Below, one piece after another: positions 5,909 to 57,780 of a stretch of 64,000 nucleotides of DNA. Under the pieces are notes generated by a model that was not told the origin of the DNA, did no database searches, and worked only from the letters and a program-made list of their open reading frames with translations. The first letter of the stretch is position 1. Each line of letters opens with the position of its first letter. Position numbers and translations under genes: made by a program. The stretch is from Candidatus Berkelbacteria bacterium (lineage in GTDB: Bacteria; Patescibacteriota; UBA1384; DTJR01): the NCBI GenBank assembly GCA_026397175.1, contig JAPLVK010000015.1, forward strand, positions 4,996 to 68,995, given 5' to 3'.

Positions 5909-5995
5909 CCCGAATGGCGCCTGCCTGCCGGTAGGCAGGGAATTGGCCTGCCCGCCGATGCTACGCAAAGCGCTGCAGGCAGGCGGAATTGGCAA
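5908..5995. repeat. GC-rich intergenic block: duplicated tRNA-Leu 5' fragments (GCCCGAATGGCG...GAATTGG and GGCGGAATTGG) interrupted by palindrome CCTGCCTGCCGGTAGGCAGG
   Basis: Matches the first 19 nt of tRNA-Leu at 6517 with a 20-bp palindromic insert; the same palindrome recurs at 26876 and 54016. Confidence 0.6.
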
Positions 5996-6044: not shown

Positions 6045-6563
6045 ATGCCAAGAGCTCGACGGTGGACTATAGAACAATTAAAAAAAGCGGTGAAAGAAGC
6101 TCGTAGCAAGCGAGGGGTTTTGATTGTACTTGGATTGAGGCCTACCGGTGGTAATTACAAACAACTTGAAAAATATATTAATGAATTAAATTTAGATACG
6201 ACTCATTTTTTGGGTAAGGGGTGGAATAAGGGATTGCAGTTCTGTCCGAAGCCGGCAATTCCAATCACTGAAATTTTAAAGAAAGATTCAGATTTTCAAT
6301 CTTATAAGCTAAAGAAACGATTATTCAAAGAAGGTTTAAAAAAAGAGAGATGTGAAGAGTGTGGTTGGGCGAAGTATTCTAGTGATGGGAGATTGCCTCT
6401 TGAATTAAATCATAAGAATGGGAATTCCGGAGACAATCGCATCGATAATCTAGAAATTCTTTGCCCAAATTGTCACAGTTTGAGGCCACATTATAGGGGG
6501 AGCAAGTTAAAAAAATGCCCGAATGGCGGAATTGGTATACGCGCATCACTTAAAATGATGTGA
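6045..6563 (+). CDS. HNH endonuclease (homing-endonuclease-like)
   Basis: ELNHKNGNSGDNRIDNLEILCPNCH HNH motif plus a CxxC pair; the 3' end runs into tRNA-Leu, so the true stop is uncertain. Confidence 0.65.
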   Translation: MPRARRWTIEQLKKAVKEARSKRGVLIVLGLRPTGGNYKQLEKYINELNLDTTHFLGKGWNKGLQFCPKPAIPITEILKKDSDFQSYKLKKRLFKEGLKKERCEECGWAKYSSDGRLPLELNHKNGNSGDNRIDNLEILCPNCHSLRPHYRGSKLKKCPNGGIGIRASLKMM

Positions 6564-6603
6564 CCGAAAGGTCTTGTCGGTTCGAGTCCGACTTCGGGCA
6601 CCA
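6517..6603 (+). tRNA. tRNA-Leu (anticodon TAA), long variable arm
   Basis: Acceptor GCCCGAA/TTCGGGC, anticodon stem CATCA/TGATG with loop CTTAAAA, variable hairpin GACCGAAAGGTC, T-loop TTCGAGT, CCA. Confidence 0.85.
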
Positions 6604-6714
6604 AAATCAAACTTTCCGTTTTTTTCCCGACCAATTCGGCGGCGCGAAGCGCCGAAATGTATGGCTGAACAGGGTTTCCGCGCGCTTCGCGCGCGTTCAA
6701 GTGGAGGTTCGAGC
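6599..6714. repeat. IR1-L (about 115 bp); inverted partner at 9519-9633, about 5 mismatches
   Basis: Reverse complement aligns base-by-base with 9519-9633; begins inside the tRNA-Leu 3' end and covers the recombinase C-terminal codons. Confidence 0.85.
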
Positions 6715-7830
6715 CAAAGATTTCTTTGGCAACAACCTTTTTTGCTAAAAGGTTGTTATCCCTTGCAATTTTAACGAGGGTTAAAGAGACTTTTATCCAA
6801 TTTTGAAACGGTTCGAGCCAATTATTTTGCTTTTGTTCAATCCGCGCCATTTGCTCATCAAGCGACTTCTTTTCCAAAAGAAGTTTTGTTTTTTGTTCGC
6901 GATAAATCTCTCTTTCAATATCTTGCTCTAAATAGCCGTCAAGAAGTCGCTGTAATTTTGTATTGATAGCGTGGATTTTGTTTTGAGCTTTTTGAACAAA
7001 AGCAAAACAGGATTGGGCGGACATTTCCTTGTCTCTTTCCGCCATTTCTAAAAGTTTGTCCGCCCACTTCTGGCTCAAAGAAACTCTTTGAATAAGAGCT
7101 GATAACTGCCGATCCAATTCCTCTTCGCGAATATATGGCTGAGTACATTTAATTTTCTTTTTTGAACAACGATAATAAATATGTCCTTTTTGTTTTTCGG
7201 CAGTTATCATCATTCCACATTCGGCGCACTCAATAAGTCCACAAAATGCTTGTGGCTCATTTTTTTGCTTGCGTTGTGTTTTGCCTCGTTGTTTCAAAAC
7301 TTCTTGCGCCGAATCAAAAAGTTTCTTTGAAATGATTGGCTCGTATTTTCCTTCGTGAAGTTCGCCATCATATTTGAATAGTCCAGTATAAAAAGGATTT
7401 GAAAGGATAAAAGTCACCCTCGTCTTGTGGATTTTCTTTCCGCCGCGGGAAAGTATCCCGCGTTGCGCCAAAAAGTTCGAAATATCCTCGAGGCGTGATG
7501 CGCCTTCGGCATACAGTTCAAATGCTTCTTTAGTGATTTTTGCTTTCTTTCTGTCTACCACAATGGTTTTGGTGCGCACATCGTTTATGTAGCCGATTGG
7601 CGCAAGGCTTGGATATTCGCCTCGTCTTACTTTTTGGCGCAAACCCCGCTTGGTGTTTTCGGAAAGAGAATCCACATAGTATTTGCTTTGCCCAAAAGCA
7701 ATGTTCAACATAAATTTTCCTTGCGGCGTTGGTTCAAACCAAAATTGAGGAAACTTCAACGCCACAATACGCCCGCAATCAATCAAATAAATTATTTGTC
7801 CGCCATCAACAGAATTGCGCGCCAATCTGT

Positions 7831-9231
7831 CAGACATTCTATGATAAATTTAAAGTGTTCCCCGCGCTATGCCGCCGGATGACTCATGGCATCCTGCGTC
7901 CCGCCATCGGCGGGATCGCCTTGGTCAGACTGTCTCCGGTGGCATAGGCGCGATTAGTCGCTTCAATAGCTCAATAGAATGTTGCTCCCTTTATGGGTAG
8001 CTTATGATAAATGGTTGCTTGGCGGCTTGAGTCGCGCTTTGCCCGGGACAGGAAGAGCAGAAAAATAAGGAAGGAGGTGAAAATGAACGCGTGTCTTACT
8101 CCCAAGTCAACCGTTGTTGGGGTTGATGTGCATAAATACTCTCACACAGCGGTAGCGATGAATTGCTTCGGCCAGGAAAAAGATCGGCTGGATTTCTCAA
8201 ACGACCGCTTGGATGATTATGTCTTATGGCTTCAGAGGTTAGGCCAAAAAGAAGATATTGTTGTTGCTCTTGAGGATGTAAACGGTTATGGATTTCATAT
8301 TGTCGAAAAATTGAGTCATGAAGGAATCAAAATGCGCTATGTTCCGGCGATACTCACCGAGCGGGACAGAAAACAAAGCATACACAGGGAGAAAAGCGAT
8401 AAGGAAGATGCAAAGCGGGTAGGAAAAGTCATCCTCACAAAGTTCGAGGAGACACTACCCGCCAAAGAAAGTATAGCAAATGAAGCGGAAAGGAACATAA
8501 GCGCCAATCTTGATTTTCTTACTTCCGAAAGAAGAGTGTTGGTTTCCGATAAAACAATTCTCAAAAACCAGCTCCACGCCATGCTTCATCAACTATTCGG
8601 AGATCATTATCAGGATGGATTTGCCAAAGTGTTCAACAGAAAAGCTGTCAGTTCTTATCGCAAGAAATTGTCTTCCTTCAAATCAGCCAATCCGATAAAA
8701 TCCGCTCTTGCTAAAAGCGTCATCAGGCGTTTCGACAGATTGTCTCTTGTCGAAAAACAACTTCAAGAAATAGATAAAACAATAAACGGTCTCGCTAAAA
8801 AATCAGAAGCGGTTATGGCGCTTAAAGACAATATCCATGGCTGTGGCGCAATTACGGGGGCGGCAATTATCGCCGAAGTAACGACTATTGATCGTTTCTC
8901 AAGCAAAGCCAAGTTTGCCCGATATTCCGGCATCGCTCCGATTAACAAATCTTCCGGCATGCACCAACGACTCTATACCAGCCCTTTTGGCAACCGGAAG
9001 ATGAATAGAGCTCTTCATACTATCGCTTTATGCCAAATTGCCTGCAGGGGAGATGACAGAGGGAAAGTATACTTTCAAAAGAAATTATCCGAGGGCAAAA
9101 CAAAACTTTGGGCGCTAAGATGTCTCAAAAGACAAATCTCAAATAGAGTATTTCAAGTGCTCAAAGAACAAAAAAGAGAGGAGACAATAATGCAATAAAA
9201 TAACCCAATAAATCCATGCTATTGACATAAA
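7831..9231 (+). mobile_element. IS110-family insertion sequence (1401 bp), no target-site duplication
   Basis: Flanks rejoin to restore a continuous recombinase reading frame (ctgtc|tggatgcc); lack of TSD/TIR is typical of IS110. Confidence 0.8.
8083..9198 (+). CDS. IS110-family transposase (DEDD N-terminal domain plus Transposase_20-like C-terminus)
   Basis: RBS AAGGAGGTG before ATG 8083; VGVDVHK...AFEDVNG motif pattern of IS110/IS1111 transposases. Confidence 0.8.
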   Translation: MNACLTPKSTVVGVDVHKYSHTAVAMNCFGQEKDRLDFSNDRLDDYVLWLQRLGQKEDIVVALEDVNGYGFHIVEKLSHEGIKMRYVPAILTERDRKQSIHREKSDKEDAKRVGKVILTKFEETLPAKESIANEAERNISANLDFLTSERRVLVSDKTILKNQLHAMLHQLFGDHYQDGFAKVFNRKAVSSYRKKLSSFKSANPIKSALAKSVIRRFDRLSLVEKQLQEIDKTINGLAKKSEAVMALKDNIHGCGAITGAAIIAEVTTIDRFSSKAKFARYSGIAPINKSSGMHQRLYTSPFGNRKMNRALHTIALCQIACRGDDRGKVYFQKKLSEGKTKLWALRCLKRQISNRVFQVLKEQKREETIMQ

Positions 9232-9474
9232 TGGATGCCAAGCCAAAATTCCGTCCGCTTCGCCCTTTTCAATACGCTTTATCATTTTGCCGAAAATATG
9301 GCGGCCGGGAATTTTGGCAGATTGTTTTTCAATAAATGTTTCAACGATATTCAAATTTTCTTGTTTGGCAAAAGCGCGCAATTCTGTGATTTGTGCTTCG
9401 ATAGACAAAATCTGTTTATCCTCCACATCGGTGGACTTGCGGGCGTATAAGAAAAATTTATTTTGATTATTCAT
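9232..9474 (-). pseudogene. serine recombinase N-terminal fragment (catalytic Ser region YARKSTD), truncated by IS110
   Basis: MNNQNKFFLYARKSTD...GILAWHP aligns with residues 1-80 of the intact recombinase at 47585-49081; reads into IS sequence after WHP. Confidence 0.8.
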
Positions 9475-9518
9475 ATTTTTTTATTGGGCAAAGCAAATGC
9501 TTTAAATTGCAAGGGATT

Positions 9519-9633
9519 TCGAACCTCCGCCTGAACGCGCGCGAAGCGCGCGGAAACCCTGTTCAGCCATACTCCTCGGCGCTTCGCGCCGCTGAATTGG
9601 TCGGGAAAAAAACGGAAAGTTTGATTTTGGTGG
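9519..9633. repeat. IR1-R (inverted copy of 6599-6714)
   Basis: See IR1-L. Confidence 0.85.
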
Positions 9634-9778
9634 AATTATACGACTCCGCTCGAACTTTTTTTGAACGAAATTTTTAAAAACTTTTCAAATGAATTCGGCT
9701 CGGGCGGGCAAAAAGGAAGGGGGGTGGGGGGAAGGAATTTTTGCCCGCTCTCGCTTTCCCGACGCTACTGGATTTCGT
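9627..9778. repeat. IR2-L (about 152 bp); inverted partner at 12518-12669, 1 mismatch; contains motif GGAAGGGGGGTGGGGGGAAGGAATT
   Basis: Reverse complement matches 12518-12669; shares core TTTGGTGG with IR1-R. Confidence 0.9.
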
Positions 9779-9894
9779 ATTTCGCTTCGCGAAATGCACC
9801 GCTGGAACTTTACTATTTTTAATTTTCGGTATACTATCAAAGTAGATGAAAGGAAGTAGCACTTATACTTTAATTCTACTATCACAATATCAGT

Positions 9895-10092
9895 ATGTCA
9901 AATATTCAAAAAACACTTAGAAAACTCAGAGAAGCCAAGGGCTTGTCCCAAGAAAAATTGGCGAGATTGTCAGATGTCGCCAATAATACTATTATTAAAA
10001 TTGAAGGTGGCAAAAACCAAAATCCAACACTCGATACTCTCAAAAAAATTTCAAAAGCTCTTGAGGTGAGTGTTGACGATTTGATAAACTAA
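9895..10092 (+). CDS. HTH XRE-family transcriptional regulator
   Basis: GLSQEKLARLSDVANNTIIKIEGG helix-turn-helix. Confidence 0.7.
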   Translation: MSNIQKTLRKLREAKGLSQEKLARLSDVANNTIIKIEGGKNQNPTLDTLKKISKALEVSVDDLIN

Positions 10093-10152
10093 AGTAAAGT
10101 GCGGAACAAAAACCCGTTTTAAAAATGATTTTTATTAAGGAAGAAAACCATA

Positions 10153-11190
10153 ATGGTTAAAAACAATAAAACAACTAAGAAATGCCCGCATTGCAAGGAA
10201 GAAGTTTTAATAGATGCTCGAAAATGTAAGCATTGTGGTGAGTGGCTTGAGACAAAAGAAACTAAGAAGGGGGCTGAGGATGTGGTGCTAAGACAGCCCA
10301 ATGAAGAAGCTAAAAAAACTTCCAATAGTGGCTTCATCGGTTTAATTATTATCCTTGTTATTGTTTTCTTGTTTATGAGTTGGTCAACGCGGTTTATGAT
10401 TTTTGCCTTTTTATCTTTTGTGGCATTGCTGATTGGGTTAACAGAGCCAGACAGATTCAAAAAATTAATCAAAAAACCTACACGAAAAAATATTGGTTTA
10501 GTTTTTGGCTGTGCTGTTCTAGCATTCCTTATTTTATTTGGGATTACTACGCCAAAAAATCCGACTATTGCTTTTAATGATTTAAATGATTCAAGTAAGG
10601 AAGTAACGGTTGGCAATTTTGACATAAAAGGCAAAGTTAGCCCTGCTGATAGCGCTATAAAAATAAAAAAAGATAATAAGACATACATAACTACATCGAA
10701 ACCAGATAAAAATGGTAATTTTACCTATAATGTAGATTTGAATGAGGGAGATAATAATTTCTCATTTACCGCTGATAATCACGGCAAAACATTTTCTATC
10801 TCCAAAAAACTAGTTAGAAAACTTTCTCAAGAAGAAACAACCAAGAAAGATGCAGAAGCAAAAGCCAAGGCCGAAGAGGAAGCTAAGGCAAAAGCTGATG
10901 CTGATGCTAAAAAATCTAGATATGAGGCTGGTTCAGTAAATAAACTAAAAAATATTCAGCCAATTTTTCTTGGAACATCAAAGGACAACTGGACTAAATT
11001 ATCGAAGTATATTCTAGCTGGTGATGACACAGGAGTAAAAAATATGATCTATTCTGGAGAAGCGCTTATTGCTGACGGAGGATCACAAATAAAAACAATT
11101 GAATGGAATTGGGGTATATTTCATGTTCGAATTTTGGAAGGTACAAGCAAAGACAGTGAAGCTTGGGTTTCGGATACTTTTGTTGAATAA
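10153..11190 (+). CDS. membrane protein with N-terminal CxxC-x-CxxC zinc ribbon, conserved 2-TM module and lysine/alanine-rich extracellular region
   Basis: CPHCKEEV...CKHCGEW; TM module paralogous to the next gene. Confidence 0.5.
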   Translation: MVKNNKTTKKCPHCKEEVLIDARKCKHCGEWLETKETKKGAEDVVLRQPNEEAKKTSNSGFIGLIIILVIVFLFMSWSTRFMIFAFLSFVALLIGLTEPDRFKKLIKKPTRKNIGLVFGCAVLAFLILFGITTPKNPTIAFNDLNDSSKEVTVGNFDIKGKVSPADSAIKIKKDNKTYITTSKPDKNGNFTYNVDLNEGDNNFSFTADNHGKTFSISKKLVRKLSQEETTKKDAEAKAKAEEEAKAKADADAKKSRYEAGSVNKLKNIQPIFLGTSKDNWTKLSKYILAGDDTGVKNMIYSGEALIADGGSQIKTIEWNWGIFHVRILEGTSKDSEAWVSDTFVE

Positions 11191-11206
11191 CTTTTAAAGG
11201 AAAAAT

Positions 11207-12067
11207 ATGAACACATTATTTTTACTTCTCTTCCTTGCCTCATTTATTTGTTTAATTATTGGCTTAACAAAACCCGCTACTTTTTCTCGTTTTATCAAAG
11301 GAAAATCCGCTAGAAAAAATATCGGGTTGATTTTTGGCATTGCTACTTTAGTATTTTTCATTTTATATGTGGCGACGGCTAATACCAGTGATAAAAAAAC
11401 GACAACGCAATCGCCGAGTTCTACAAAAACCACAGCAAGCCAGGAAAGCAAAACTGTAGAACCGAAGATCGCCGCCGCTTATAAAACTGTTGCGACCGAA
11501 GATTTAAGCATGAAAGCATTGGGAAATAAAAAATTATCCGATTACTCTAGCTCGGAAATTTCTAAGTTGCCGACCGACAAACGGTACCAGTTCCGAATTG
11601 TTATCGAAAAAAATCTCGATCAAGACAGTATAAAGAAAATTATCGAGTCACTCATTAGCGATAAAAGATCCGAGGATAGTGATATTGATGAACTTACTAT
11701 CTTCATCTATGATGACGAAAAAGATGCCAAGGAACCATACACAATCGGGAAAGCTATCTGGTCGCCAGGTGGGGTTTGGGGAAGTGTAACGCCTGAAATT
11801 GCCAGTAGCAATAACCGTGCCAATTATATAACAAATTATGAGTTCGTTACAAAAACTACAACAAATACCCTTACCGACAGGGAAAAAGAAATAAGGAATG
11901 ACTATAACAATAAACTCGATGAGTTACTCGCTAAGCAAACAGAATGGTCTTCGGATTCATCAACTGATGATGCAATTAATAAAGAACTCGAAGATTACAT
12001 TATGAAAAAATATTCAATTACAAAAGATGAATTGGATAAAATCATGGTCAAAGGTTTAATACAATAA
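11207..12067 (+). CDS. membrane protein paralogous (TM module) to 10153-11190
   Basis: CLIIGLTKPATFSRFIKGKSARKNIGLIFGIATLVFFIL aligns with ALLIGLTEPDRFKKLIKKPTRKNIGLVFGCAVLAFLIL. Confidence 0.5.
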   Translation: MNTLFLLLFLASFICLIIGLTKPATFSRFIKGKSARKNIGLIFGIATLVFFILYVATANTSDKKTTTQSPSSTKTTASQESKTVEPKIAAAYKTVATEDLSMKALGNKKLSDYSSSEISKLPTDKRYQFRIVIEKNLDQDSIKKIIESLISDKRSEDSDIDELTIFIYDDEKDAKEPYTIGKAIWSPGGVWGSVTPEIASSNNRANYITNYEFVTKTTTNTLTDREKEIRNDYNNKLDELLAKQTEWSSDSSTDDAINKELEDYIMKKYSITKDELDKIMVKGLIQ

Positions 12068-12078
12068 AATTGTAAAAT

Positions 12079-12489
12079 ATGGCAAACGAAAATCAAAAAC
12101 CTATCCATAAATTACCGGAGTCAACGATCCGTATTATGGAAGAAGCCCAAAAATCATACAAACGCTTGGCTGGTAGCATAGCAAATATGGCGAGTATTCT
12201 TCCAAAATTTCCCAAAATTGACATCTCAAAATTTCAAATACTCGACCAGCAAGAACGTGAAATAGTTCCGCCACTGAATTACGATCTTATGCATGAACAG
12301 AATGAATGGAAGCGACATATAGAAATTTTGGATGTGCAAAATGTGGTAGTTGAGACACTATCAGGAATTTTGAAAGAACAAAAATCTACAACAAAACTAA
12401 CATTGTGTCTAAAAAAATTAACATGGGCCATCTTAATTTTGACAATGCTAGGAATTGTAGCAACAGTTATATTTAGCATCATGAAATAA
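12079..12489 (+). CDS. hypothetical protein with C-terminal TM anchor
   Basis: ORF with terminal hydrophobic helix. Confidence 0.35.
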   Translation: MANENQKPIHKLPESTIRIMEEAQKSYKRLAGSIANMASILPKFPKIDISKFQILDQQEREIVPPLNYDLMHEQNEWKRHIEILDVQNVVVETLSGILKEQKSTTKLTLCLKKLTWAILILTMLGIVATVIFSIMK

Positions 12490-12517
12490 TGCAAGCGATG
12501 CGCCAGCTTTGCTGGCA

Positions 12518-12669
12518 CGAAATCCAGTAGCGTCGGGAAAGCGAGAGCGGGCAAAAATTCCTTCCCCCCACCCCCCTTCCTTTTTGCCCGCCCGAGCAGA
12601 ATTCATTTGAAAAGTTTTTAAAAATTTCGTTCAAAAAAAGTTCGAGCGGAGTCGTATAATTCCACCAAA
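12518..12669. repeat. IR2-R (inverted copy of 9627-9778)
   Basis: See IR2-L. Confidence 0.9.
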
Positions 12670-47549: not shown

Positions 47550-47626
47550 GGGGTGGTAGCTCAATTGGCTAGAGCAATTCCCTGTCACGGAATAGGTTGA
47601 GGGTTCGAGTCCCTTCCATCCCGCCA
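47550..47626 (+). tRNA. tRNA-Asp (anticodon GTC)
   Basis: Acceptor GGGGTGG/CCATCCC, D-stem GCTC/GAGC, anticodon stem ATTCC/GGAAT with loop CTGTCAC, T-loop TTCGAGT, discriminator G, CCA. Confidence 0.85.
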
Positions 47627-49081
47627 GTTCGTATGAGAAGTTTTTTGGAATAAAATTCCCCACGGATTTTCAGGTTTGAGAGCGACAATTCCTGCCCTGA
47701 CAAGACGGTTCGAGCCGATCTTTTTCAAAAGCTCCGCTTTTGCCACAAAATTTTGAGATGTTTGTAGATTACTGGCTTGGTGAACCTCATTTACCCAATC
47801 TGTAAGCGGTTCGAGCCACAAATTGCCCTTGCGATTAAGACGGGCGATTTTTTGTTTTAGAGCGACTTTCTGCTCGACAAGTTCCGACTTTTTAGTTTGA
47901 TACTCTTCAGCTTCCAAAAGCCCATCTAAATGAGCGTCGAGCAGTTTAGAAAGCCGCTTGTTCAATATCTCAAGTTCTTTTCCGACTCCCTTTATCGCAA
48001 GGGCAGATGATTGGATGTTATCAGTTTTCCATATTTCAATTTGTTTTTGCATTTTATTTGTCCAATCATCTTTCAAAGCCACTTTTGAAAAAATCTTGTC
48101 AACTTGGCTTGTCAGCTTCTCTTCACGCACAAATTTTTGTGCGCAAACACTGTTCTTTTTGGTGCAACGATAATAGCGAAAAACAAGCCCCGACTTTTTG
48201 ATTTGTCGTTCACCAGTGATCGCCCGCCCGCACTCTCCGCAGTTAAATACTCCACGAAATGGGAAATATAAAAGTTCTTTTGTTTTTCGCGGGCGACTTC
48301 GATTTTGCAAAGTTTGTTGCACCAAATCAAAAGTGGCTTTGTCAACTAAAGGCTCGTGTTTGGCTTCGTAAGTTTCGCCACCATAGCTAAAAAGCCCGAT
48401 ATAAAATTTGTTTCGCAAAAGTTTTTCCAAAACAGAACAAGACAAACCAATTCTTCCACGTTGGCTTTTTAGCTTCAAAGAAAGCGATAAAGTTTCCAAA
48501 TCTTTCAGAGAATATTTCCCCGTTGAATATTTACAAAACAGTTTTTTGATAAGCGGGGCTTTTTCATTGTCGATATCGATTGTATGACTTCGCAAATTAT
48601 TCGTGTAGCCAATCGGCGCCCAGCCGGGCCATTCGCCTCGGCGGAGTTTTTGTCTTAAGCCCCGCTTAACATTCTCTGAAAGATTATCGATGTAATATTT
48701 AGCTTGACCAAAAGCAATTTGGAGCATAAACAAACCTTGGCTGGACGGCTCAAACCAGTAAGTTGGAAACCTTAGAGAGCACAACTTGCCCCTATCAATC
48801 AGATTGATAATTTGCCCGCCATCAACTGCGTTTCGAGCCAGACGATCGGGGTTCCACGAAATGATTCCGTCGGCCTCGTCGTTGACGATTTTTTCGAGCA
48901 TTAAATTAAAAATTGGGCGGCCCGGCTCTTTGGCCGTTTTTGCTTCGATAAGTTCCTCAACAATTTCCAAATTATTTTGGCGGGCAAATTCATGAAGTTC
49001 GGCAAGTTGCGCTTCAATAGACAATACCTGTCTTTCCTCGTCATCGGTAGATTTTCGAGCATAGAGTATATATCTATTCAA
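47585..49081 (-). CDS. large serine recombinase (resolvase-type catalytic domain, recombinase domain, zinc ribbon, coiled coil), apparently intact
   Basis: YARKSTD catalytic-Ser motif, CGECG/C-x-C zinc ribbon; ORF has no stop until inside tRNA-Asp, so the exact 3' end is uncertain. Confidence 0.85.
   Translation of the reverse strand: MNRYILYARKSTDDEERQVLSIEAQLAELHEFARQNNLEIVEELIEAKTAKEPGRPIFNLMLEKIVNDEADGIISWNPDRLARNAVDGGQIINLIDRGKLCSLRFPTYWFEPSSQGLFMLQIAFGQAKYYIDNLSENVKRGLRQKLRRGEWPGWAPIGYTNNLRSHTIDIDNEKAPLIKKLFCKYSTGKYSLKDLETLSLSLKLKSQRGRIGLSCSVLEKLLRNKFYIGLFSYGGETYEAKHEPLVDKATFDLVQQTLQNRSRPRKTKELLYFPFRGVFNCGECGRAITGERQIKKSGLVFRYYRCTKKNSVCAQKFVREEKLTSQVDKIFSKVALKDDWTNKMQKQIEIWKTDNIQSSALAIKGVGKELEILNKRLSKLLDAHLDGLLEAEEYQTKKSELVEQKVALKQKIARLNRKGNLWLEPLTDWVNEVHQASNLQTSQNFVAKAELLKKIGSNRLVRAGIVALKPENPWGILFQKTSHTNWRDGRDSNPQPIP
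47620..47722. repeat. recombinase-module IR-L; inverted partner at 49157-49286 (1 mismatch plus a 37-bp hairpin-bearing insertion in the partner)
   Basis: Reverse complement aligns with 49198-49286 and, after the insertion, with 49157-49170; begins at CCCGCCAG of the tRNA-Asp 3' end. Confidence 0.85.
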
Positions 49082-49156: not shown

Positions 49157-49286
49157 CACCGCTTTGCGGTGTCTGAAATGAATTTCAGGAATCGTCTTGT
49201 CAGGGCGGGAATTGTCGCTCTCAAACCTGAAAATCCGTGGGGAATTTTATTCCAAAAAACTTCTCATACGAACTGGCGGGGAATTC
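49157..49286. repeat. recombinase-module IR-R (inverted copy of 47620-47722)
   Basis: See IR-L. Confidence 0.85.
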
Positions 49287-49419
49287 TGAATGAAGCTCGA
49301 ATTTATTTTGAAAAGAATTTTTAGTAATGCTCGTGTCGCGCTTTGCGCGACACTCGCTCTCTGTTTTTCAAATTTCCTTTGGGTCGGGAAGGAGGGGGTT
49401 GGGGGGAGGAATTCGATTT
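49287..49419. repeat. cargo-module IR-L (about 133 bp); perfect inverted partner at 53532-53658; motif GGAAGGAGGGGGTTGGGGGGAGGAATT
   Basis: Reverse complement identical to 53532-53658; homologous to IR2 of element 1. Confidence 0.9.
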
Positions 49420-49421
49420 AT

Positions 49422-49949
49422 TTAACAAAAAAAGTTATTTGATCTCAGTTGTTCTTTTATTCTTAAAAGTTCAGATTGCGATATGATTTTTTCATCCTTC
49501 AAATAATCTAAGATAAATATCGTGTCCCTAAATTCCGCTTTATCAAATATTTTGATACTTTGTCTCAAGGCCTCATTTTTTGCACGCTTTTCATCAGCTA
49601 CAAAAACCGCTTCTAGTTCCTTCGCTAAAACCATAGCCGAAATCTCGCCCCTACCCAAACATTTTAACTCTTCTAGCCGTGCAAATAATTTTAAACTTAT
49701 AATCTGTTCGGGCGATTTAATTGAGATTTTACCCATGTTAATAATTTCTGTCAGAACAGCTAGCTTTTCGGAAAGCTCTGGCTTAAGAATGAAATTCGAA
49801 CTTATTCCTTCTTGTAATTCTTCAAAAACCTCTCTTGTTGTGATCAGATTACAGGGCAACTTTAAAATTAAATTAGTTCTCTCAACCCGTGCAAAGTTGC
49901 TTAGGACGTTATTATCAAAAACAAGAGTTTCATTCTCGATATTTTTCAT
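49422..49949 (-). CDS. PIN-like nuclease-fold protein (DUF4411-like), putative toxin/effector
   Basis: N-terminal LVFDNNVLSNF and GEISAMVLAKELEAVFVADE acidic-residue pattern typical of PIN folds; a COG2856-DUF4411 adjacency is recalled from memory. Confidence 0.5.
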   Translation of the reverse strand: MKNIENETLVFDNNVLSNFARVERTNLILKLPCNLITTREVFEELQEGISSNFILKPELSEKLAVLTEIINMGKISIKSPEQIISLKLFARLEELKCLGRGEISAMVLAKELEAVFVADEKRAKNEALRQSIKIFDKAEFRDTIFILDYLKDEKIISQSELLRIKEQLRSNNFFC

Positions 49950-50706
49950 CTCCCGCCCTCCTAATCTCAGCAACCAAATCTTTCGTTTCTTCGTAGCTCT
50001 TACGCAATAACTCAGCGAGCTTATCTAAGGTTATCATTTCTGTGAAATAGGCGTTAAATGCGAGTTTCAAATATTCACTTGGTAATTTTAATTCGCCATG
50101 CTCGACCGTCTTTTGTGGTTCATATCCAAGTTTTAAAGACAGAAAATTTAACCTGCTAGTTTCTAACAATTTAATTTTATAATCTTTGTCGAAACCATAT
50201 TTTAAATTATTCAGTTGATAAATTGTAGCTTGCCAGCTAACATCAAATTCATTGCGTATTCTAACAAGCTCTTCGTCTGTTAACTTATTTGACTTATTGT
50301 CCAACACTTCTTTGATGTAGGTTTTTACCCCGTTCCCTGGCATTAAAAAGTTAGCGGCAAAACAATCCGCTAACTTTTCATAGGTTGGCTTGGAACCCCC
50401 ATTGAATTCGATCAGTAGCGGTTGGGTTTCTTTATCTCTTAAATGGTGGCAATACTCGTGAACTGCAGTGAAATTTTGGTGACCTATAGAGCGATTACTG
50501 TTTACTAAAATACTCGAAAGATTTTTTTCTCTGTCGTAAAAAAATACTCCCGAAAATTCTTCCGAATCAACTGGCATTTTAACAACAAATATTCCCTGTC
50601 CTTCAAGCAGGGCAAAAAGATTTTTGATTGGGGCGTCATCAAGCCCTAGCTCTTTCCTCTTTGATTCAGAGAGCTGCCTTGCTTCGTCCAAATAATTAAT
50701 TGCCAT
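49930..50706 (-). CDS. ImmA/IrrE-family (COG2856) zinc metallopeptidase
   Basis: HEYCHH (HExxH) motif in an ImmA/IrrE-like context, downstream of an XRE regulator. Confidence 0.75.
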   Translation of the reverse strand: MAINYLDEARQLSESKRKELGLDDAPIKNLFALLEGQGIFVVKMPVDSEEFSGVFFYDREKNLSSILVNSNRSIGHQNFTAVHEYCHHLRDKETQPLLIEFNGGSKPTYEKLADCFAANFLMPGNGVKTYIKEVLDNKSNKLTDEELVRIRNEFDVSWQATIYQLNNLKYGFDKDYKIKLLETSRLNFLSLKLGYEPQKTVEHGELKLPSEYLKLAFNAYFTEMITLDKLAELLRKSYEETKDLVAEIRRAGDEKYRE

Positions 50707-51051
50707 TTATAACCTCTTCAAGGAATCAAAATCTTCACAGATTTTTTTAAATTCCAGTAAACTCTTTTTGCTTTGTTCCGACAATTTTTCGGTATTCCTA
50801 AAATGCATTACGGCCATCTCGAATTGGGGTATTTCGGAAAGTTTGCCTGAAATTATTTCGTTAGCTTCAATGCCATAGAGGTCGGCGAGACTAAATAGTT
50901 CGAAACTGTCAATTTTTCTCTTTCCCGATTCAATACCAATAATCGCCTGGCGAGTAAGTCCAAGCTCTTTAGCAACAAATTCTTGGCTAAAACCAAGCTT
51001 TTCGCGCAGATACTTAAGATTGCTTCCTATCTTTTCCAACAAAAGCTCCAT
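50707..51051 (-). CDS. HTH XRE-family transcriptional regulator
   Basis: GFSQEFVAKELGLTRQAIIGIESGKR helix-turn-helix. Confidence 0.75.
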   Translation of the reverse strand: MELLLEKIGSNLKYLREKLGFSQEFVAKELGLTRQAIIGIESGKRKIDSFELFSLADLYGIEANEIISGKLSEIPQFEMAVMHFRNTEKLSEQSKKSLLEFKKICEDFDSLKRL

Positions 51052-51153
51052 ATCCCCTCCTTTTTAATAATCTCAGTGTAGTTTTATTATACACAAATGT
51101 CAATATTTATGTTAGATTATATTACAACCGAATAATTATTTTATTTTAAGAAG

Positions 51154-52908
51154 ATGAAATACTGGGCTAAAGATAGAGAAGGCAATATTTATGAAAAATG
51201 TATTAGATGTGATTCGAATTCCAAAAAACATTTTGCTCGAGGTAGGTGCCATAACTGCTATCATAAATGGTTGGCTGATAATAATCCAGAATATAAAGAA
51301 AAGCTTCGAATAAAAGATAGATTAAAAGATAAAAGAAGAAGGCAAACAGAAAAGTTTAAAATTAAAGAAAGAGAAAAGGATAGAGCTAAACGAGTTAAAA
51401 AGGCCTATGAAGGTGAGACTAGTCACAAAAAAGAGGTTGAGTTGCTGCAAACCAAATATCACGAAGCAAATCGAAAAATCGATGAAGAGTTAAAATATAT
51501 TGAGCAGCAATCAGTAGCAGAAAAAGAAGAGGTGCATGAGGCATATGAATACATTAAAAAACTTGAATCAAGGATAGGTTTTTATGACGCGCCAAAAATA
51601 AAGTGTCCTTTTTGCAATACTGATTTTTTGTTTGAGTGGCCAAGGAAGTCAAAACCCATGCGAAGTCATCTAACAAAAAGCAATTGCCCGAACTGTAATT
51701 TTAATCCTGTGAGAGATGGGCTATGCATGAGATGCAATCGGGTCATAATCAACATAAAAGACTTTACTACAACGAACAATTATCCAATTTGCAATGACTG
51801 TTTACATATTATAAATAATCCGAGTAGATTTTTAGGGTTTGCAATTAAGGATTTCCATAATTACTGTGTAAAATGTGGAGCTAGATTAAGTTATAGAGTA
51901 GAGGAGCCTTCTTTGTGTTGGAATTGTAATGATCTATACAACGAAAAAGGGAAGGACCCGTATGAGTGTGACAAAGAATGGGTAGAAATAGAAACCGATG
52001 ATTCGGGCGGTGAATATCGGTTTGAAAGGCTTCCAATGTTAGAAGCTCCTTATACAGCAATTAAATATTTTTCTCAGCCGGGTTCTCCCAAGGATCACGA
52101 ATTTATTTTGAATTTAAAACATGAATTATCTTTAAGTTTAAAAATAGAGGATTTAGGAAATCCTTTAGGTTATCTGATGTATAAATCAACTATGTTCACA
52201 AGCAAAAATAAAGAGAAGATTTTAAATCGCATGAATCAGAAAATTGTAAAATGGGAGATAGAGAATGGTAGAAAAACTCTAGATTATTTTGGTAATGATT
52301 TGCAAACAACTCAAATATTTTCAGGAAATATCTCAAGACAAGAATACAGAGAATATAAATCGTCGATTATCGCAAGGTATAATCCCCGCAACTTGGGTTC
52401 AGACGATTCTCTGTCGAAAAAATTGACTGACGATGAAGTTGTCTCGATCAATATTGAAGGATTATCATTTTATAATTTACAACCTACGTTTCGGAAATTC
52501 CTAAATAGTTTAATTAGAGAAAGTGAAAATGAGATTAGGTTTGAAGTGGGCGTGCCTGCTATCGGCGAAGGTTGGGTTTCTGAAACAGAATTATTTCATA
52601 AAATTAAAGAAATTTGCGAGCAAGGTGGGTTAGATGCGATACACCACGCAAGACCAGAATGGCTTGGAATACAGCATCTGGATATATTTATTCCCAAGTT
52701 AAATATTGCAATCGAATATCAAGGAAAGCAACATAGTGAGCCAGTTGATTTCTTTGGTGGTGAAGAAGCTCACCTAAAAACTCTTGAAAGAGATAAAAAG
52801 AAAAAAGAACTTTGTGACCAGAATAACATTGAACTTAATTATGTTAATGAGGGTGATGATATAGAACTGTTGATTAAGGATTTACACGATCGTATTGTCC
52901 TTAAGTAG
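51154..52908 (+). CDS. multi-zinc-ribbon protein with C-terminal DUF559/Vsr-like PD-(D/E)xK endonuclease domain
   Basis: At least 6 CxxC pairs in the N-terminal 300 aa; C-terminal ...LDIFIPKLNIAIEYQGKQH... matches the D...(I/V)E(x)xG.QH pattern of DUF559 nucleases. Confidence 0.5.
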   Translation: MKYWAKDREGNIYEKCIRCDSNSKKHFARGRCHNCYHKWLADNNPEYKEKLRIKDRLKDKRRRQTEKFKIKEREKDRAKRVKKAYEGETSHKKEVELLQTKYHEANRKIDEELKYIEQQSVAEKEEVHEAYEYIKKLESRIGFYDAPKIKCPFCNTDFLFEWPRKSKPMRSHLTKSNCPNCNFNPVRDGLCMRCNRVIINIKDFTTTNNYPICNDCLHIINNPSRFLGFAIKDFHNYCVKCGARLSYRVEEPSLCWNCNDLYNEKGKDPYECDKEWVEIETDDSGGEYRFERLPMLEAPYTAIKYFSQPGSPKDHEFILNLKHELSLSLKIEDLGNPLGYLMYKSTMFTSKNKEKILNRMNQKIVKWEIENGRKTLDYFGNDLQTTQIFSGNISRQEYREYKSSIIARYNPRNLGSDDSLSKKLTDDEVVSINIEGLSFYNLQPTFRKFLNSLIRESENEIRFEVGVPAIGEGWVSETELFHKIKEICEQGGLDAIHHARPEWLGIQHLDIFIPKLNIAIEYQGKQHSEPVDFFGGEEAHLKTLERDKKKKELCDQNNIELNYVNEGDDIELLIKDLHDRIVLK

Positions 52909-52995
52909 TCCATCTACCCCTTATCCGTCTTGACAGTCAGGGATGTATCTATCAACATTGAATCTGATCTATTTAATAATGTGATAGGAGAAAAA

Positions 52996-53160
52996 ATGTA
53001 TCAGAAGGAATGTAAGTATTTTTACGAAAAAGAAGTTCGGACGCGCGAGATAGGGATGGTCAGGGGTTTCGCACTCGAACTCGTTCCAGTGTGTGAAAAA
53101 GTCGATGCATTCGAAAAACAACTACTTGAATGCGAAGATTGCGAGTTATATGAAGAATAA
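52996..53160 (+). CDS. small Cys-rich (zinc-ribbon-like) protein
   Basis: RBS TAGGAGAA before ATG 52996; CKYF...CEKVD...CEDCE. Confidence 0.3.
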   Translation: MYQKECKYFYEKEVRTREIGMVRGFALELVPVCEKVDAFEKQLLECEDCELYEE

Positions 53161-53464
53161 CGAACCAAATAAAAGACATGAAAAAATGAAAAGATGTTTA
53201 AATGTTATTTCGGTAATACTCTTGGGCTTACTGTATTTATTTTGTGGATATATAATATTGTCTCTCATTGGCGACAAAAAACCGATTCTGAATTACTACG
53301 AATTGATTTTTGTCATTCTTGCTCTTGGCATTATGTTTGTCGTAAGTATGGTTTTAAATTTCATGAGTGACAACCCATCGTCCGTGAATATCAATTTTTT
53401 TAAATTGTTTGGAGTAAAGTTTGACTACAAAGACAGGGGTCAAAATATCGAAAATAGCAAATGA
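53093..53464 (+). CDS. small 2-TM membrane protein
   Basis: ORF with two hydrophobic helices. Confidence 0.3.
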   Translation: MKKSMHSKNNYLNAKIASYMKNNEPNKRHEKMKRCLNVISVILLGLLYLFCGYIILSLIGDKKPILNYYELIFVILALGIMFVVSMVLNFMSDNPSSVNINFFKLFGVKFDYKDRGQNIENSK

Positions 53465-53531
53465 GCTTTTGGGCCTGAAGAGGCCATTCCCCAAATTATT
53501 TCAAAAAAATTCCGCCCAAAAAGCGGGTCGG

Positions 53532-53658
53532 GAATTCCTCCCCCCAACCCCCTCCTTCCCGACCCAAAGGAAATTTGAAAAACAGAGAGCGAGTGTCGCG
53601 CAAAGCGCGACACGAGCATTACTAAAAATTCTTTTCAAAATAAATTCGAGCTTCATTC
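53532..53658. repeat. cargo-module IR-R (inverted copy of 49287-49419)
   Basis: See cargo-module IR-L. Confidence 0.9.
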
Positions 53659-53765
53659 GGAGCTTCGGGTGGCCTTCGGCCACCAAAATAATCAACGAAG
53701 GGTGCGACCCGAAGTTTTCCGAAGGTAACCCAAAGCTTTAGCGGAGGGTTTAACGAAGGGTTGCG

Positions 53766-54008: not shown

Positions 54009-54015
54009 CCAAATC

Positions 54016-54035
54016 CCTGCCTGCCGGCAGGCAGG
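54016..54035. repeat. 20-bp GC palindrome CCTGCCTGCCGGCAGGCAGG (copy 3; others at 5921-5940 and 26876-26898)
   Basis: Exact copies at 26879-26898 and 54016-54035; variant with TA centre at 5921-5940. Confidence 0.8.
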
Positions 54036-54067
54036 CTCCCGCTTCCTTATCACTCAAGATCGGGCTT

Positions 54068-54130
54068 GTCCTGTTACAGACCAAAAGCATAGTGTCTTTT
54101 AACGGGGGTAAAAGTGTAGCGTCCCCTATG
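54068..54130 (-). repeat. REP-like repeat, inverted orientation (about 90% match to reverse complement of 57781-57848)
   Basis: Shares GGGTAAAAGTGTAGCGTCCCC core and the 38-bp CCATTAGAAGACACTATGCTTTCGGTCTCTAACAGG block. Confidence 0.75.
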
Positions 54131-54221
54131 GTTTAACTAACCGCCCCGCCTCTTCCATACCTGTTATTGTGGTGCTATAATTAAATTAATAACCAGCTGA
54201 TATAAACTTATTTATAATTAA

Positions 54222-54842
54222 ATGAAAGAAGAGCTAAAAGATATAAAGAACAATATTGAGATTATGAATCTCATTAAGTATTGCCAAGGTTATATAAAGC
54301 TCGTCAATCCCTCATTCAACAGATTCAGAATAAATACTGACCCTATTGAAGAAAAGTATCTAAGTACCGATATTTTATATCAAGACAGCGACGAGGAAGA
54401 TGAATTTGAAATAAATCTGAAAGAGTTTTATGAGAATGACCCTAAAAACGTTCCAGAAGAAGCCAAAGAAGAATACGGAAAGCAGAAAGAACTCGCACAA
54501 CAGCTCGAGCAGATAAAGAATCGTTTTAATATAAGTGAGTATACAAAGCAGGTCAACCTTAATTTCGGATATTTTAAGGTAGAGGTGCCCGAGCCGGAAA
54601 TCGATGAATTCTCTGAGGATGATACCGAAGAAGATAAGCCCAAAAAGAAAAAATCTGACATCTATCCATTGTTCTCTTTACCAATTAAAGTTATAGCCGA
54701 CAGGCAATTTTCAATAAAGTTGAAGGATGTGAACATTATTCCAAACATCGGTTTCTTATTCGATGTTCTTGGTGAAGAAAAATTTTATGAATTTGCCGAC
54801 TTCATAAACAAACAAGAGATTGAAGGAGCTCTGAGGTTTTAG
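54222..54842 (+). CDS. hypothetical acidic protein flanked by REP-like repeats
   Basis: ORF only. Confidence 0.4.
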   Translation: MKEELKDIKNNIEIMNLIKYCQGYIKLVNPSFNRFRINTDPIEEKYLSTDILYQDSDEEDEFEINLKEFYENDPKNVPEEAKEEYGKQKELAQQLEQIKNRFNISEYTKQVNLNFGYFKVEVPEPEIDEFSEDDTEEDKPKKKKSDIYPLFSLPIKVIADRQFSIKLKDVNIIPNIGFLFDVLGEEKFYEFADFINKQEIEGALRF

Positions 54843-54914
54843 GGGGTTTTAGGGGACGCTACACTTTTACCCTGATGATTGGAGATAACAGCATTTTTGT
54901 GTTACTATTAGCAC
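54841..54914 (+). repeat. REP-like repeat (GGGGACGCTACACTTTTACCC core plus GATTGGAGATAACAGCAT block) immediately upstream of the Y1 transposase
   Basis: Core shared with 57791-57811; reverse complement at 54100-54120 and 55583-55603. Confidence 0.8.
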
Positions 54915-55574
54915 ATGTCTCGTCAACCAAGATTTTTACCACCGGATAATTATTATCACATTATGAATCGCGGTAATAATGGACAGCTAATCTTTACTTG
55001 CGATGACGATTATCAGTATTATTTGGAAAAACTTTCCGATCTAAAGGTCGAGCATCTCTTCGACTTAATCCACTATTGCTTGATGGGTACACACACGCAC
55101 ATGCTGGTTAAAATATCCAAGCAAACCGACTTCTCAATATTTTCCAAACGATTAAACTTGAGTTATGCCAACTACTACAAAAAAGAATATGGCTTGATTG
55201 GTCATCTTTGGCAAGGTAGGTACAAAAGCCAGCTAATCAGTAGTGATGCGTATTTTATGCAATGCGGCAAATATATTGAGCTGAATCCTTTGAGGGCCGG
55301 AATTGTTCAGAAACCAGGGGACTACAAATTTTCCAGCTACAATCACTATGCTTTTTCAAAAAATAATTCACTGATTACTGATGACATATTTTACAAAGAG
55401 CTTGGCCCCAATGAAGAAGAAAGGGGAAGGATGTATAGAGACCTAACCATTTCTGAAATAATTGCCGATACTATGAATGGGAGGAAAATAGCGATAGGTA
55501 CAAGCAAATTCGTGTATAATACAAACAAGAAGAATAAATATCATATTAAGAACAAGAACTCTGCTTATCGCTAA
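54915..55574 (+). CDS. IS200/IS605-like Y1 (HuH) transposase of the REP-associated tyrosine transposase (RAYT) type
   Basis: HTHMLV (HuH) and GHLWQGRYKS...YIELNPLRAG motifs closely resemble RAYT/IS200-like proteins. Confidence 0.75.
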   Translation: MSRQPRFLPPDNYYHIMNRGNNGQLIFTCDDDYQYYLEKLSDLKVEHLFDLIHYCLMGTHTHMLVKISKQTDFSIFSKRLNLSYANYYKKEYGLIGHLWQGRYKSQLISSDAYFMQCGKYIELNPLRAGIVQKPGDYKFSSYNHYAFSKNNSLITDDIFYKELGPNEEERGRMYRDLTISEIIADTMNGRKIAIGTSKFVYNTNKKNKYHIKNKNSAYR

Positions 55575-55576
55575 AG

Positions 55577-55628
55577 ATCAGGGTAAAAGTGTAGCGTCCC
55601 CGATTCTCATAGCGTCCCCGATTCTCAA
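55577..55628 (-). repeat. REP-like repeat (inverted core) with internal tandem duplication of GTAGCGTCCCCGATTCTCA
   Basis: Sequence comparison with the other copies. Confidence 0.75.
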
Positions 55629-55687
55629 CAAACAAACACTAATTTTGATAAAATAAAAAAGTAATTATAAATTATAAAGGAGGATCG

Positions 55688-55822
55688 ATGGCTCTAAAAA
55701 AGATTGCGAAAAAAACTGCGTCTTCTATCGGCAATACCACGAAAAAGGGTGTCAAAGACATTGGCAAAGCCGTCCGCAAAGGCATCAAAGACACGAAGAA
55801 AACCATCAAAAAAACTCTTTAA
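55688..55822 (+). CDS. small lysine-rich protein (44 aa)
   Basis: RBS AAGGAGG 8 nt upstream of ATG; below the ORF-track size cutoff. Confidence 0.3.
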   Translation: MALKKIAKKTASSIGNTTKKGVKDIGKAVRKGIKDTKKTIKKTL

Positions 55823-56026
55823 CAAATAGCACTAACAACGAATTCTTTAAATAGGTTTTAGCTGTGGTATTTTGTTTCATTTTTACCCTCATAAGGAGTG
55901 GGAGGATCTACGGGGTAGGGGACGCTTTAAACTCCACCTGCCGGGTGGAGTTTTGGTGAATACGGGGATGGGATCATTGAATTTTGCTTCAGTTAAGAGT
56001 AGTTTATTATAGAGGTAAAAATTAAT

Positions 56027-57776: not shown

Positions 57777-57780
57777 TTTA

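Follow-up and report, generated by a model that had tools for sequence, protein, structure and literature searches.

Large serine recombinase elements at tRNA genes of a Patescibacterium have their crossover site inside the recombinase gene and appear to keep the natural end of that gene in an inverted copy

The window analysed here, a stretch of 64,000 nucleotides (nt) from a Candidatus Berkelbacteria bacterium (contig JAPLVK010000015.1, positions 4,996 to 68,995), contains four transfer RNA (tRNA) genes according to ARAGORN and Rfam. Two of these, tRNA-Leu(TAA) and tRNA-Asp(GTC), both on the + strand, each adjoin a small integrative element moved by a large serine recombinase (elements 1 and 2, the first about 6 kilobases (kb) long, the second at 47.6-53.7 kb). 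In both elements the recombinase open reading frame (ORF) runs through one arm of an inverted repeat (IR) and on into the antisense strand of the tRNA gene. An earlier note on this DNA had described the open frames and their C-termini, which read ...TESLILVPEVGLEPTRPFG... within tRNA-Leu in element 1 and ...NWRDGRDSNPQPIP inside tRNA-Asp in element 2, and our analysis confirms both the ORF ends and these readings. It also bears out the note's claim that the IR repeats recombinase codons in inverted orientation at the far end of the recombinase module. Each IR pair starts within the last bases of the tRNA and spans the final ~30-38 codons of the ORF, and ~38 codons in element 1 and ~30 in element 2 recur, inverted, in front of the start of the gene. 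That the frame stays open across the antisense tRNA, for 36 codons in element 1 and 11 in element 2, is by itself not remarkable; IRs of such length and identity (Table 1) are beyond what would be expected by chance. The earlier note had missed an insertion of the IS110 family that splits the gene of element 1, a second IR pair around the cargo and an inverted copy of the whole attachment site (attP). At gathering thresholds Rfam matches only the four tRNAs in the window, and nothing in the IR arms or in the non-coding part of the IS110 insertion.

The first IR pair (arms A and A') encloses the recombinase module and in both elements adjoins the second pair (B and B'), which encloses the cargo. 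The arms are arranged in three attachment sites: attL consists of tRNA·core·A, a middle site in inverted orientation of A'·core'·B, and attR of B'·core·flank, the core being the last 4-9 bases of the tRNA gene with the CCA included. In element 1, attL reads …CTTCGGG·CACCAAA·ATCAAACTTTCC…, so that the sequence to the right of the core starts with ATCAAAC. The middle site, reverse-complemented, reads …TATAATTC·CACCAAA·ATCAAACTTTCC… (B'·core·A, flanks TTC and ATCAAAC), and attR reads …TATAATTC·CACCAAA·TTTTATTTCAC… (flanks TTC and TTTTATT). The middle site is in its sequence a full attP, with B' as the P arm and A as the P' arm, which lies inverted directly upstream of the recombinase gene, 45 base pairs (bp) from the start codon in element 1 and 107 bp in element 2. 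Element 1 spans positions 6604-12669 and is followed by a host SpoU methylase gene; tRNA-Leu stays intact because the element supplies its last bases. In element 2 attL and the middle site are arranged in the same way around the core CCCGCCA, and the attR, which we could verify in element 1, has decayed. The crossover core therefore lies within the 3' end of the recombinase gene, as the earlier note had supposed, and 14-15 codons short of what appears to be the natural stop. Both window elements are probably immobile, element 1 because of the IS110 insertion in its recombinase gene and element 2, despite an intact gene, because of its decayed attR.

The IS110 insertion of ~1.4 kb sits between codons …WHP and DRLARN… of the element 1 gene, and rejoining the two parts gives a protein of 506 amino acids (aa) that is 42% identical to the enzyme of element 2. 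An exact look-up of the element 2 protein returned no record. A search with the element 2 protein, given the natural tail described below, found 5,313 relatives. The best 120 of these all have the Resolvase (PF00239), Recombinase (PF07508) and Zn_ribbon_recom (PF13408) domains, save one without a Zn_ribbon_recom match and one N-terminally truncated fragment, and those with a named source are from Patescibacteria. Residues Y7, R9, K10 and S11 are invariant in 25 aligned sequences and form the Y-x-R-x-S context of resolvase-type catalytic domains. The AlphaFold (AF2) model of a tail-bearing homologue (P0020; mean predicted local distance difference test score, pLDDT, of 80) has a zinc ribbon at ~279-331, long helices at 339-416, in agreement with the coiled coil that this class has inserted in its zinc-ribbon domain, and a beta-hairpin at the Gly-Ser-Asn motif, the beginning of arm A; next come a disordered linker and the tail, which forms a terminal helix (pLDDT 62-82). 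Its best Foldseek matches are the integrase-DNA complexes of SPbeta-type, PhiC31, Bxb1 and LI enzymes, with E values of 1e-21 to 1e-12. Domains, fold and the register of the left half-site (see below) all agree with a large serine recombinase, in keeping with the earlier assignment to the serine recombinases. Hin/Gin-type invertases, of about 190 aa with a C-terminal helix-turn-helix (HTH), which use short inverted sites and an enhancer, differ from the proteins here, which have about 500 aa and the domains of large serine recombinases.

The inverted copy, translated from the + strand in the frame of the recombinase, leads over the core into arm B and gives the gene a different end, …TESLILV-ELYDSARTFFERNF-stop in element 1 and …HTNWR-GILNEARIYFEKNF-stop in element 2, whose enzyme would then end in …NWRGILNEARIYFEKNF. 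The two tails, of 14 residues each, are clearly homologous, though the enzymes themselves are so distant; the conserved tail obtained in this way closes with …ARTFFERNF-stop or …ARIYFEKNF-stop. In the 120 best homologues conservation extends through the IR-encoded part as far as the codon that overlaps the CCA of the tRNA, usually Trp (TGG), and none of them ends well upstream of the IR. Beyond this codon there are three classes of C-terminus. Fourteen of the 120 have a conserved tail of 14-17 residues, W[SR]x[LI]Lxx[AV]RT[FY]FExN… and a stop; about 29 stop at or just past the core (…WSG-stop); and the remainder have a variable run of the type …W[SR]G[RK][DE]SNP[RQ]…, the T-arm read in antisense. 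Proteins with the tail and proteins fused to tRNA sequence reach 93-95% identity (P0111/P0104 and P0116/P0109), and therefore both states occur in closely related elements. These comparisons place the true C-terminus in arm B, past the crossover site, and indicate that the read-through into the tRNA, including 6491-6598 in element 1, is incidental. The earlier note had taken the antisense-tRNA stretch as the C-terminus of the protein, with recombination between the IRs merely flipping the module and preserving the gene. The ORFs are indeed open in both elements, but the extension beyond the core varies from 0 to more than 60 residues, is alike among homologues only in the …DSNP… that the tRNA imposes, and is lacking altogether in the class that stops right at the core, so that we consider a functional antisense C-terminus very improbable. 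Recombination between the IRs would also not simply preserve the gene; since the natural tail is encoded by the inverted copy, it would instead swap the tRNA-derived end for that tail. One homologue (P0019) has an ORF that crosses an antisense tRNA over its full length and continues into another core with a tail of the conserved kind (…VWRTRPDLNP…LWCLLDKVRTYYEQNPDAG), which we read as two elements in neighbouring tRNA genes.

Our preferred explanation, to which we would assign a probability of about 0.7, is that these are elements with attP inside the recombinase gene, in which a spare inverted attP keeps the natural tail, integration alters the enzyme and excision or inversion restores it. 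The sequences show that integration into a tRNA gene produces attL (tRNA·core·A) and attR (B'·core·flank) and thereby parts the body of the gene from its last 14-15 codons, after which the integrated gene reads the antisense tRNA to a chance stop, and that the spare inverted attP (A'·core'·B) keeps the natural tail in frame. If the tail matters to the enzyme, the integrated form would be altered, probably inactive or down-regulated. The tail-less state may then be one in which the element rests stably, and its prevalence in chromosomes would agree with this. Excision by recombination of attL with attR would rebuild the gene from arm B', and inversion across A/A', whether by the recombinase or by homologous recombination, would re-join body and tail in place; either event could thus re-arm the element.

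The tail carries what appears to be a coding signature. Entropy by codon position in 33 distinct tails is 1.17, 0.77 and 1.38, the invariant Arg is encoded by CGA, CGG, CGC or AGA, the Thr by ACT, ACC or ACG and the Phe by TTT or TTC, and a stop follows within a few codons. We also considered A' plus the tail as a stand-alone peptide, either a split subunit or a directionality factor, and rejected this as a general feature: start codons are not conserved, and in 11 of 40 loci a start codon is lacking altogether. Selection on the tail can consequently act only when it is joined to the body of the gene. A different explanation for the conserved arrangement is that the spare inverted attP serves mainly as an operator at which the recombinase autoregulates, the tail being kept for an overlapping binding motif and never translated. 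Resolvases are known to autoregulate at their res sites, the spare site lies 7-190 bp upstream of the start codon, and the Arg-Thr-Phe-Phe codons of the tail are the reverse complement of the T-loop-like motif AAAAAGTTCG of arm B', which is probably bound by the zinc ribbon. However, an operator would need about 50 bp rather than an arm A of 92-160 nt and an arm B of 130-430 nt kept at 98-100% identity, the tail is always in frame and most variable at third codon positions, and full-length proteins that bear it exist. We therefore regard the operator function as an unlikely main role of the spare site.

The layout is not confined to the window. We fetched 160 related loci, 80 from species-representative genomes and 80 from metagenomes, out of about 600 matches in each collection, and most of them have the same IR arrangement. 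In 50 of the 160 both the antisense tRNA at the 3' end and an in-frame tail in the inverted upstream copy are fully verified, and many more agree with the layout as far as they go before being cut by a contig end. For 116 loci an A pair and sufficient sequence in front of the gene are available; by strict criteria at least 86 of these encode the tail in frame with the recombinase and none has it only in another frame; the remaining 30 are mostly tails that the search pattern missed. A B pair and an attR with a shared core are present in 37 loci plus element 1, with a cargo of 0.6-9.1 kb (median 2.6 kb). The targets include tRNA genes for Gln, Gly, Pro, Asn, Ser, Ala, Leu, Arg and Asp, and chromosomal copies are almost always tail-less. 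Arm A is 106 nt long in the median, with copies that are 98% identical, those of element 1 having drifted to 95%. In 72 of 120 loci its inner boundary lies at most 6 nt from the Asn codon of the conserved Gly-Ser-Asn motif, and because of this we take the duplication to be ancient and its two copies to evolve in concert. In a collection of viral contigs we found only 13 distant relatives, none of which has the two-pair layout. Related elements carry restriction-modification systems, a SMODS protein and a weak Tad4-like match, so that the cargo often looks defence-related.

Repeats of this kind could in principle be fold-back chimeras made in assembly, or the terminal inverted repeats of two unrelated transposons. 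Some contigs do have what look like fold-back ends (L054 and L182, with tRNA-Ser on both sides), and many contigs stop at the repeats; this is what assemblers would do, and by itself it is no sign of heterogeneity. Against an artefact, the IR copies in the window differ from each other (95-99% identity) and must be separate physical copies, the layout is found in two elements of one window and in more than 100 independent assemblies, and the record L007 (CP174360.1), a 'complete genome', has the A pair and the spare tail, although no B pair was found there. Transposon ends are contradicted by the repeats themselves, which are att arms that follow the logic of attL, attP and attR and meet three times at a shared tRNA core, the middle one inverted, without any flanking target-site duplication. 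We give artefact or transposon ends hardly any credence, the least of the explanations considered here.

In large serine integrases the second DNA-binding domain has its motif nearer to the centre of attB than to that of attP, by 5 bp or, in SPbeta, by 4 bp (PMC11722253). We aligned the tRNA side of attL to the B' side of the middle site at all offsets for 44 distinct pairs, and identity peaks at a shift of +5, with 0.346 as compared with about 0.23 elsewhere; in element 1 the shift is +4. The shift in the left half-site matches the attB/attP hallmark described in that work. Enzymes of this class cross over at a central dinucleotide within a short region common to attP and attB, and they recombine attP with attB in one direction, which a directionality factor reverses. 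The shared cores of 4-9 nt lie at the tRNA gene's 3' end, and the displaced motif is the T-loop sequence, GTTCGA at -18 from the core in the tRNA and GTTCGR at -23 in arm B'. This points to recognition, by the enzyme, of DNA coding for the T-loop common to all tRNAs, and we propose that the elements have spread over many tRNA genes because of this. In the window the T-loop-like GTTCGA of B' lies within 12630-12645 and 53640-53655, 4-5 bp further from the core than in the tRNA. A third GTTCGA-like copy is present on the tRNA-sense strand at the inner boundary of arm A (6700-6712 and 47700-47711), where it coincides with the Gly-Ser-Asn codons. The T-loop-like TCGAAC of these codons raised the question whether arm A derives from an ancient tRNA, an idea we dropped, arm A being ~100 nt long and otherwise unlike a tRNA.

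A more far-reaching proposal combines the T-loop reading with the exchange of gene ends. Each recombination event would rewrite the C-terminus of the enzyme responsible for it: the free form would encode a complete, integration-competent enzyme, integration would leave a tail-less enzyme and a locked element, and rare inversion over the spare attP, or excision, would restore the tail, which would make mobility phase-variable. The element would thus contain its own switch of activity or directionality without a separate factor, and reading of the T-loop DNA by the zinc ribbon would explain how the family came to occupy the 3' end of almost every tRNA species. We put this two-part proposal forward tentatively and consider it more probably wrong than right as a whole.

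Several observations weigh against the preferred explanation, that is, an enzyme altered by integration and restored by excision or inversion. The right half-sites (arm A as compared with the chromosomal flank) have no shared motif and give no signal of a 5-bp shift. In element 2 the core of attR is not recognisable, since 14 nt short of the place for the core B' gives way to a GC-rich hairpin. The recombinase ORF is intact in 160 of 170 copies, most of which are tail-less, and for this reason the tail-less enzyme may still work, or the copies may simply be young. As the Arg-Thr-Phe-Phe codons overlap the B' motif, part of the apparent protein conservation of the tail may reflect constraint on a DNA-binding site. 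The need for the tail, and inversion in cells, are points that we infer from sequence comparison. To our knowledge canonical large serine integrases do not recombine attL with attP, or attP with attP, and inversion driven by the recombinase would be non-canonical. The orientation expected after inversion, with a sense tRNA upstream of the recombinase, occurs in only three chromosomal loci (L040, L075 and L129). Two of these could be choices made by the assembler through a near-identical repeat; with just 82% identity between its A copies, L040 is a secure case of the flip. The two attP copies being near-identical, equal use of either, and hence both orientations in equal numbers, would be expected. 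The excess of the tail-less orientation therefore suggests a stable end-point, which could arise if the tail-less enzyme is inactive or if the flipped state, with an intact gene downstream of a tRNA promoter, is unstable.

Forms without a tRNA were also found. Contigs of tail-bearing proteins have the order recombinase, A'·core'·B and cargo, the latter including DpnII- and HpaII-type systems, a methylase with a ResIII helicase, a SMODS protein and the weak Tad4-like match. In the loci of one such protein, P0116 (L101-L103, from three assemblies of three samples), attP-type junctions border the recombinase module on either side and no tRNA is present. Three positions, one of which lies past the core, distinguish its two 252-nt copies, and L101 runs on into the other end of the cargo, which excludes a fold-back artefact. 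The circle is not closed in these contigs; the topology is that expected of an excised circle with two inverted attP sites, similar to the 2-micron plasmid. In a locus with 89% nucleotide identity to these (L083, compared with L101/L102) the cargo has the opposite orientation. The L083 contig crosses a ~334-nt near-identical repeat, and the apparent inversion, which could be an assembly ambiguity, is only a hint of inversion isomers. No homologous cargo pairs exist among 39 elements from which cargo orientation could provide evidence of such isomers.

This extreme diversity of cargo can also be taken to mean that the double attP is there for the exchange or accretion of modules, without any switch of enzyme activity. 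Cargo and recombinase modules between inverted sites would then be traded among elements or piled up in arrays, much as in cassette exchange. The B arms of the two window elements are partly similar although their recombinases are only 42% identical. In L100 (1-4643) the tailed recombinase reads into a different B arm and a second cargo, with the normal cargo and an attR-type site upstream, and in L081 (1-11720) two different convergent recombinases have tails that share one B-arm pair around a DpnII-type cargo. Both arrays suggest tandem accretion or hybrid elements. Exchange as the sole role of the second attP would nevertheless leave the near-universal tail-less orientation in chromosomes unexplained, and it requires recombination of attP with attP in trans, which is not known for this class of enzyme. 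We consider it quite unlikely, and rank it below the operator function.

The elements resemble several known systems. With the large serine integrases (PhiC31, Bxb1, A118/LI, SPbeta and TP901-1) they share the set of domains, the fold, short att sites, the displacement of the zinc-ribbon motif by 4-5 bp between the half-sites of attP and attB and integration that yields attL and attR. They differ from these in having the core of attP within the ORF of the integrase, whose C-terminus is thereby changed on integration, in the presence of a second, complete and inverted attP, in repeated arms of 90-430 nt as compared with a 50-bp site, and in the targeting of many different tRNA 3' ends; no candidate directionality factor was identified in the cargo of the window. 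In the 'suicidal' archaeal tyrosine integrases of the SSV type, attP within the integrase ORF matches a tRNA gene, integration disrupts the integrase and excision restores it (PMC7253208, PMC8371274). The elements described here likewise have attP within the integrase ORF and disrupt their own gene upon integration into a tRNA gene. However, the SSV enzyme is an archaeal tyrosine integrase whose gene is split into two large fragments, whereas here a bacterial serine recombinase loses only its last 14-15 codons and the element retains a spare inverted site with the tail. In the Gin/G segment of Mu, Cin of P1 and the R64 shufflon, inverted repeats with a crossover site inside a coding region give alternative 3' ends by inversion. 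The genes switched there are for tail fibres or pilin, and the small serine invertase or tyrosine recombinase has a gene of its own elsewhere; here the recombinase gene itself would be switched and one of the alternative ends is antisense tRNA. The yeast 2-micron plasmid is a circle of two unique regions separated by long inverted repeats with FRT sites, in which the tyrosine recombinase FLP is encoded in a unique region, and which replicates and uses inversion for copy-number amplification. The tRNA-free L101-L103 module with attP on both sides would have a like layout if it is circular, isomerisation being only suggested. In contrast to the plasmid, the enzyme here is a serine recombinase, the element integrates and no replication gene was seen in the cargo of the window. 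In Tn4451, a transposon of the large serine recombinase TnpX, a strong promoter for tnpX is present at the joint of its circular intermediate and nowhere else, so that there, too, the state of the recombinase gene depends on the form of the element. The joint assembles a promoter in Tn4451 and a 3' coding end here, and Tn4451 has no inverted internal att copy. The arrangement is functionally similar to SSV-type integrases, to inversion systems that swap C-termini and to the 2-micron plasmid, and is a member of none of these groups.

We found no description of the three-site layout in full-text literature, a search whose coverage leaves out most subscription journals. The elements appear to constitute a very abundant and apparently undescribed class of mobile DNA, with more than 5,000 related proteins and about 600 loci in each collection scanned, in Patescibacteria, whose mobile DNA is poorly known, and often with defence cargo. 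They would extend the principle of the archaeal 'suicidal' integrase to bacterial serine integrases and add to it a stored spare end. If the tail controls activity or direction, they would represent a natural self-limiting serine integrase without a second protein, which would be of interest for genome engineering. The T-loop motif rule is a testable account of target choice, and the loci provide many natural attP/attB pairs for different tRNA genes. As regards annotation, the recorded C-termini of these recombinases are mostly artefacts of the integrated state, and assemblies break at the repeats.

Table 1. Positions of the parts of the two elements in the window
Feature	Position	Strand	Basis or remark
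Element 1: tRNA-Leu(TAA), integration target, left half of attB	6517-6603	+	ARAGORN; Rfam RF00005, 59 bits
Core 1 CACCAAA, attL crossover region, common to sites 2 and 3	6599-6605	+	Three-site comparison
Arm A (P' arm of attP), encodes last ~38 pre-core recombinase codons on - strand	6599-6712		IR I3
Recombinase, C-terminal part	6491-7831 (ORF 6491..7837)	-	ORF; junction WHP/DRLARN
IS110-family insertion splitting the recombinase	7832-9231; transposase 8083-9198	+	Pfam DEDD_Tnp_IS110 and Transposase_20; gene reconstruction
Recombinase, N-terminal 81 codons, catalytic Ser region YARKST	9232-9474	-	
Arm A' and core 2 (9626-9632, inverted), left part of spare inverted attP	9519-9632		IR I3; A pair 114 nt, 95% identity
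Probable natural tail codons ELYDSARTFFERNF and stop, in frame with A' across the core, apart from gene body	9633-9677	+	
Arm B (P arm of attP)	9626-9778		IR I1
Cargo: HTH_3 regulator (9895-10092), zinc-ribbon membrane protein (10153-11190), two unknown proteins	9779-12516		
Arm B' and core 3 (12663-12669), attR	12517-12669		B pair 153 nt, 99% identity
Element 2: tRNA-Asp(GTC), integration target	47550-47626	+	ARAGORN, Rfam
Core 1 CCCGCCA (47620-47626) and arm A	47620-47711		IR I4
Intact large serine recombinase, 498 aa; last 11 codons (47588-47619) antisense tRNA	47585-49081	-	
Arm A' and core 2 (49274-49280, inverted)	49189-49280		A pair 92 nt, 98% identity
Probable natural tail codons GILNEARIYFEKNF and stop, in frame with A'	49280-49324	+	
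Arm B	49285-49414		IR I2
Cargo: PDC-S70-like protein, CapP-like M78 peptidase paired with CapH-like HTH, 584-aa unknown protein	49415-53531		
Arm B' without the expected attR core	53532-53661		B pair 130 nt, 99% identity

Some further observations concern the parts of the elements and their surroundings. The linker encoded by arm A between the beta-hairpin and the core (6630-6690 in element 1) often reads …AEARSAEA… or …AEPRSGEA…, in many homologues too, and corresponds to GC-rich DNA hairpins such as CGGCGCGAAGCGCCG. Because AlphaFold predicts this region to be disordered, its residues may merely follow from a DNA or RNA element that the same nucleotides form. The IS110 insertion has a 5' non-coding part of ~250 nt (7832-8082); elements of this family encode a guide ('bridge') RNA in their 5' non-coding part. 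Just upstream of tRNA-Leu, and running into it, is an ORF for an HNH endonuclease (6045-6563; Pfam HNH, E = 1e-5), which is preceded by GC-rich palindromes at 5916-5946 that recur in inverted orientation at 54009-54039.

In the cargo of element 2, PADLOC identifies the CapH-like HTH and CapP-like M78 peptidase pair and the PDC-S70-like protein within 49422-51051. Scans for promoters and terminators around the start of its recombinase gene and the tRNA junction were uninformative, the only plausible signal being a promoter of tRNA-Asp. At the place expected for the core of attR, 53662-53700, is a perfect GC-rich hairpin followed by CCACCAAAAT (GGTGGCC-TTC-GGCCACC-A…). This region resembles the 3' end and core of a different tRNA and may have been left by another element or have come in as a small hairpin. 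The closest relative of element 2 in the Joint Genome Institute (JGI) collection, with 87% protein identity, is in L084 (1687-2646), where the recombinase reads into a tRNA-Asp-like 3' fragment and an intact tRNA-Asp lies ~800 bp further on, beyond a DUF2103 gene; an earlier insertion at this site may have left the fragment behind. Downstream of element 2 a Y1 transposase gene (IS200-like/RAYT-type, 54915-55574) lies between inverted copies of GGGGACGCTACACTTTTACCC (54852-54888 and 55565-55601). Further copies are found at 54070-54129 and 57787-57846, and the region 54070-57846 looks like a REP/RAYT-type system.

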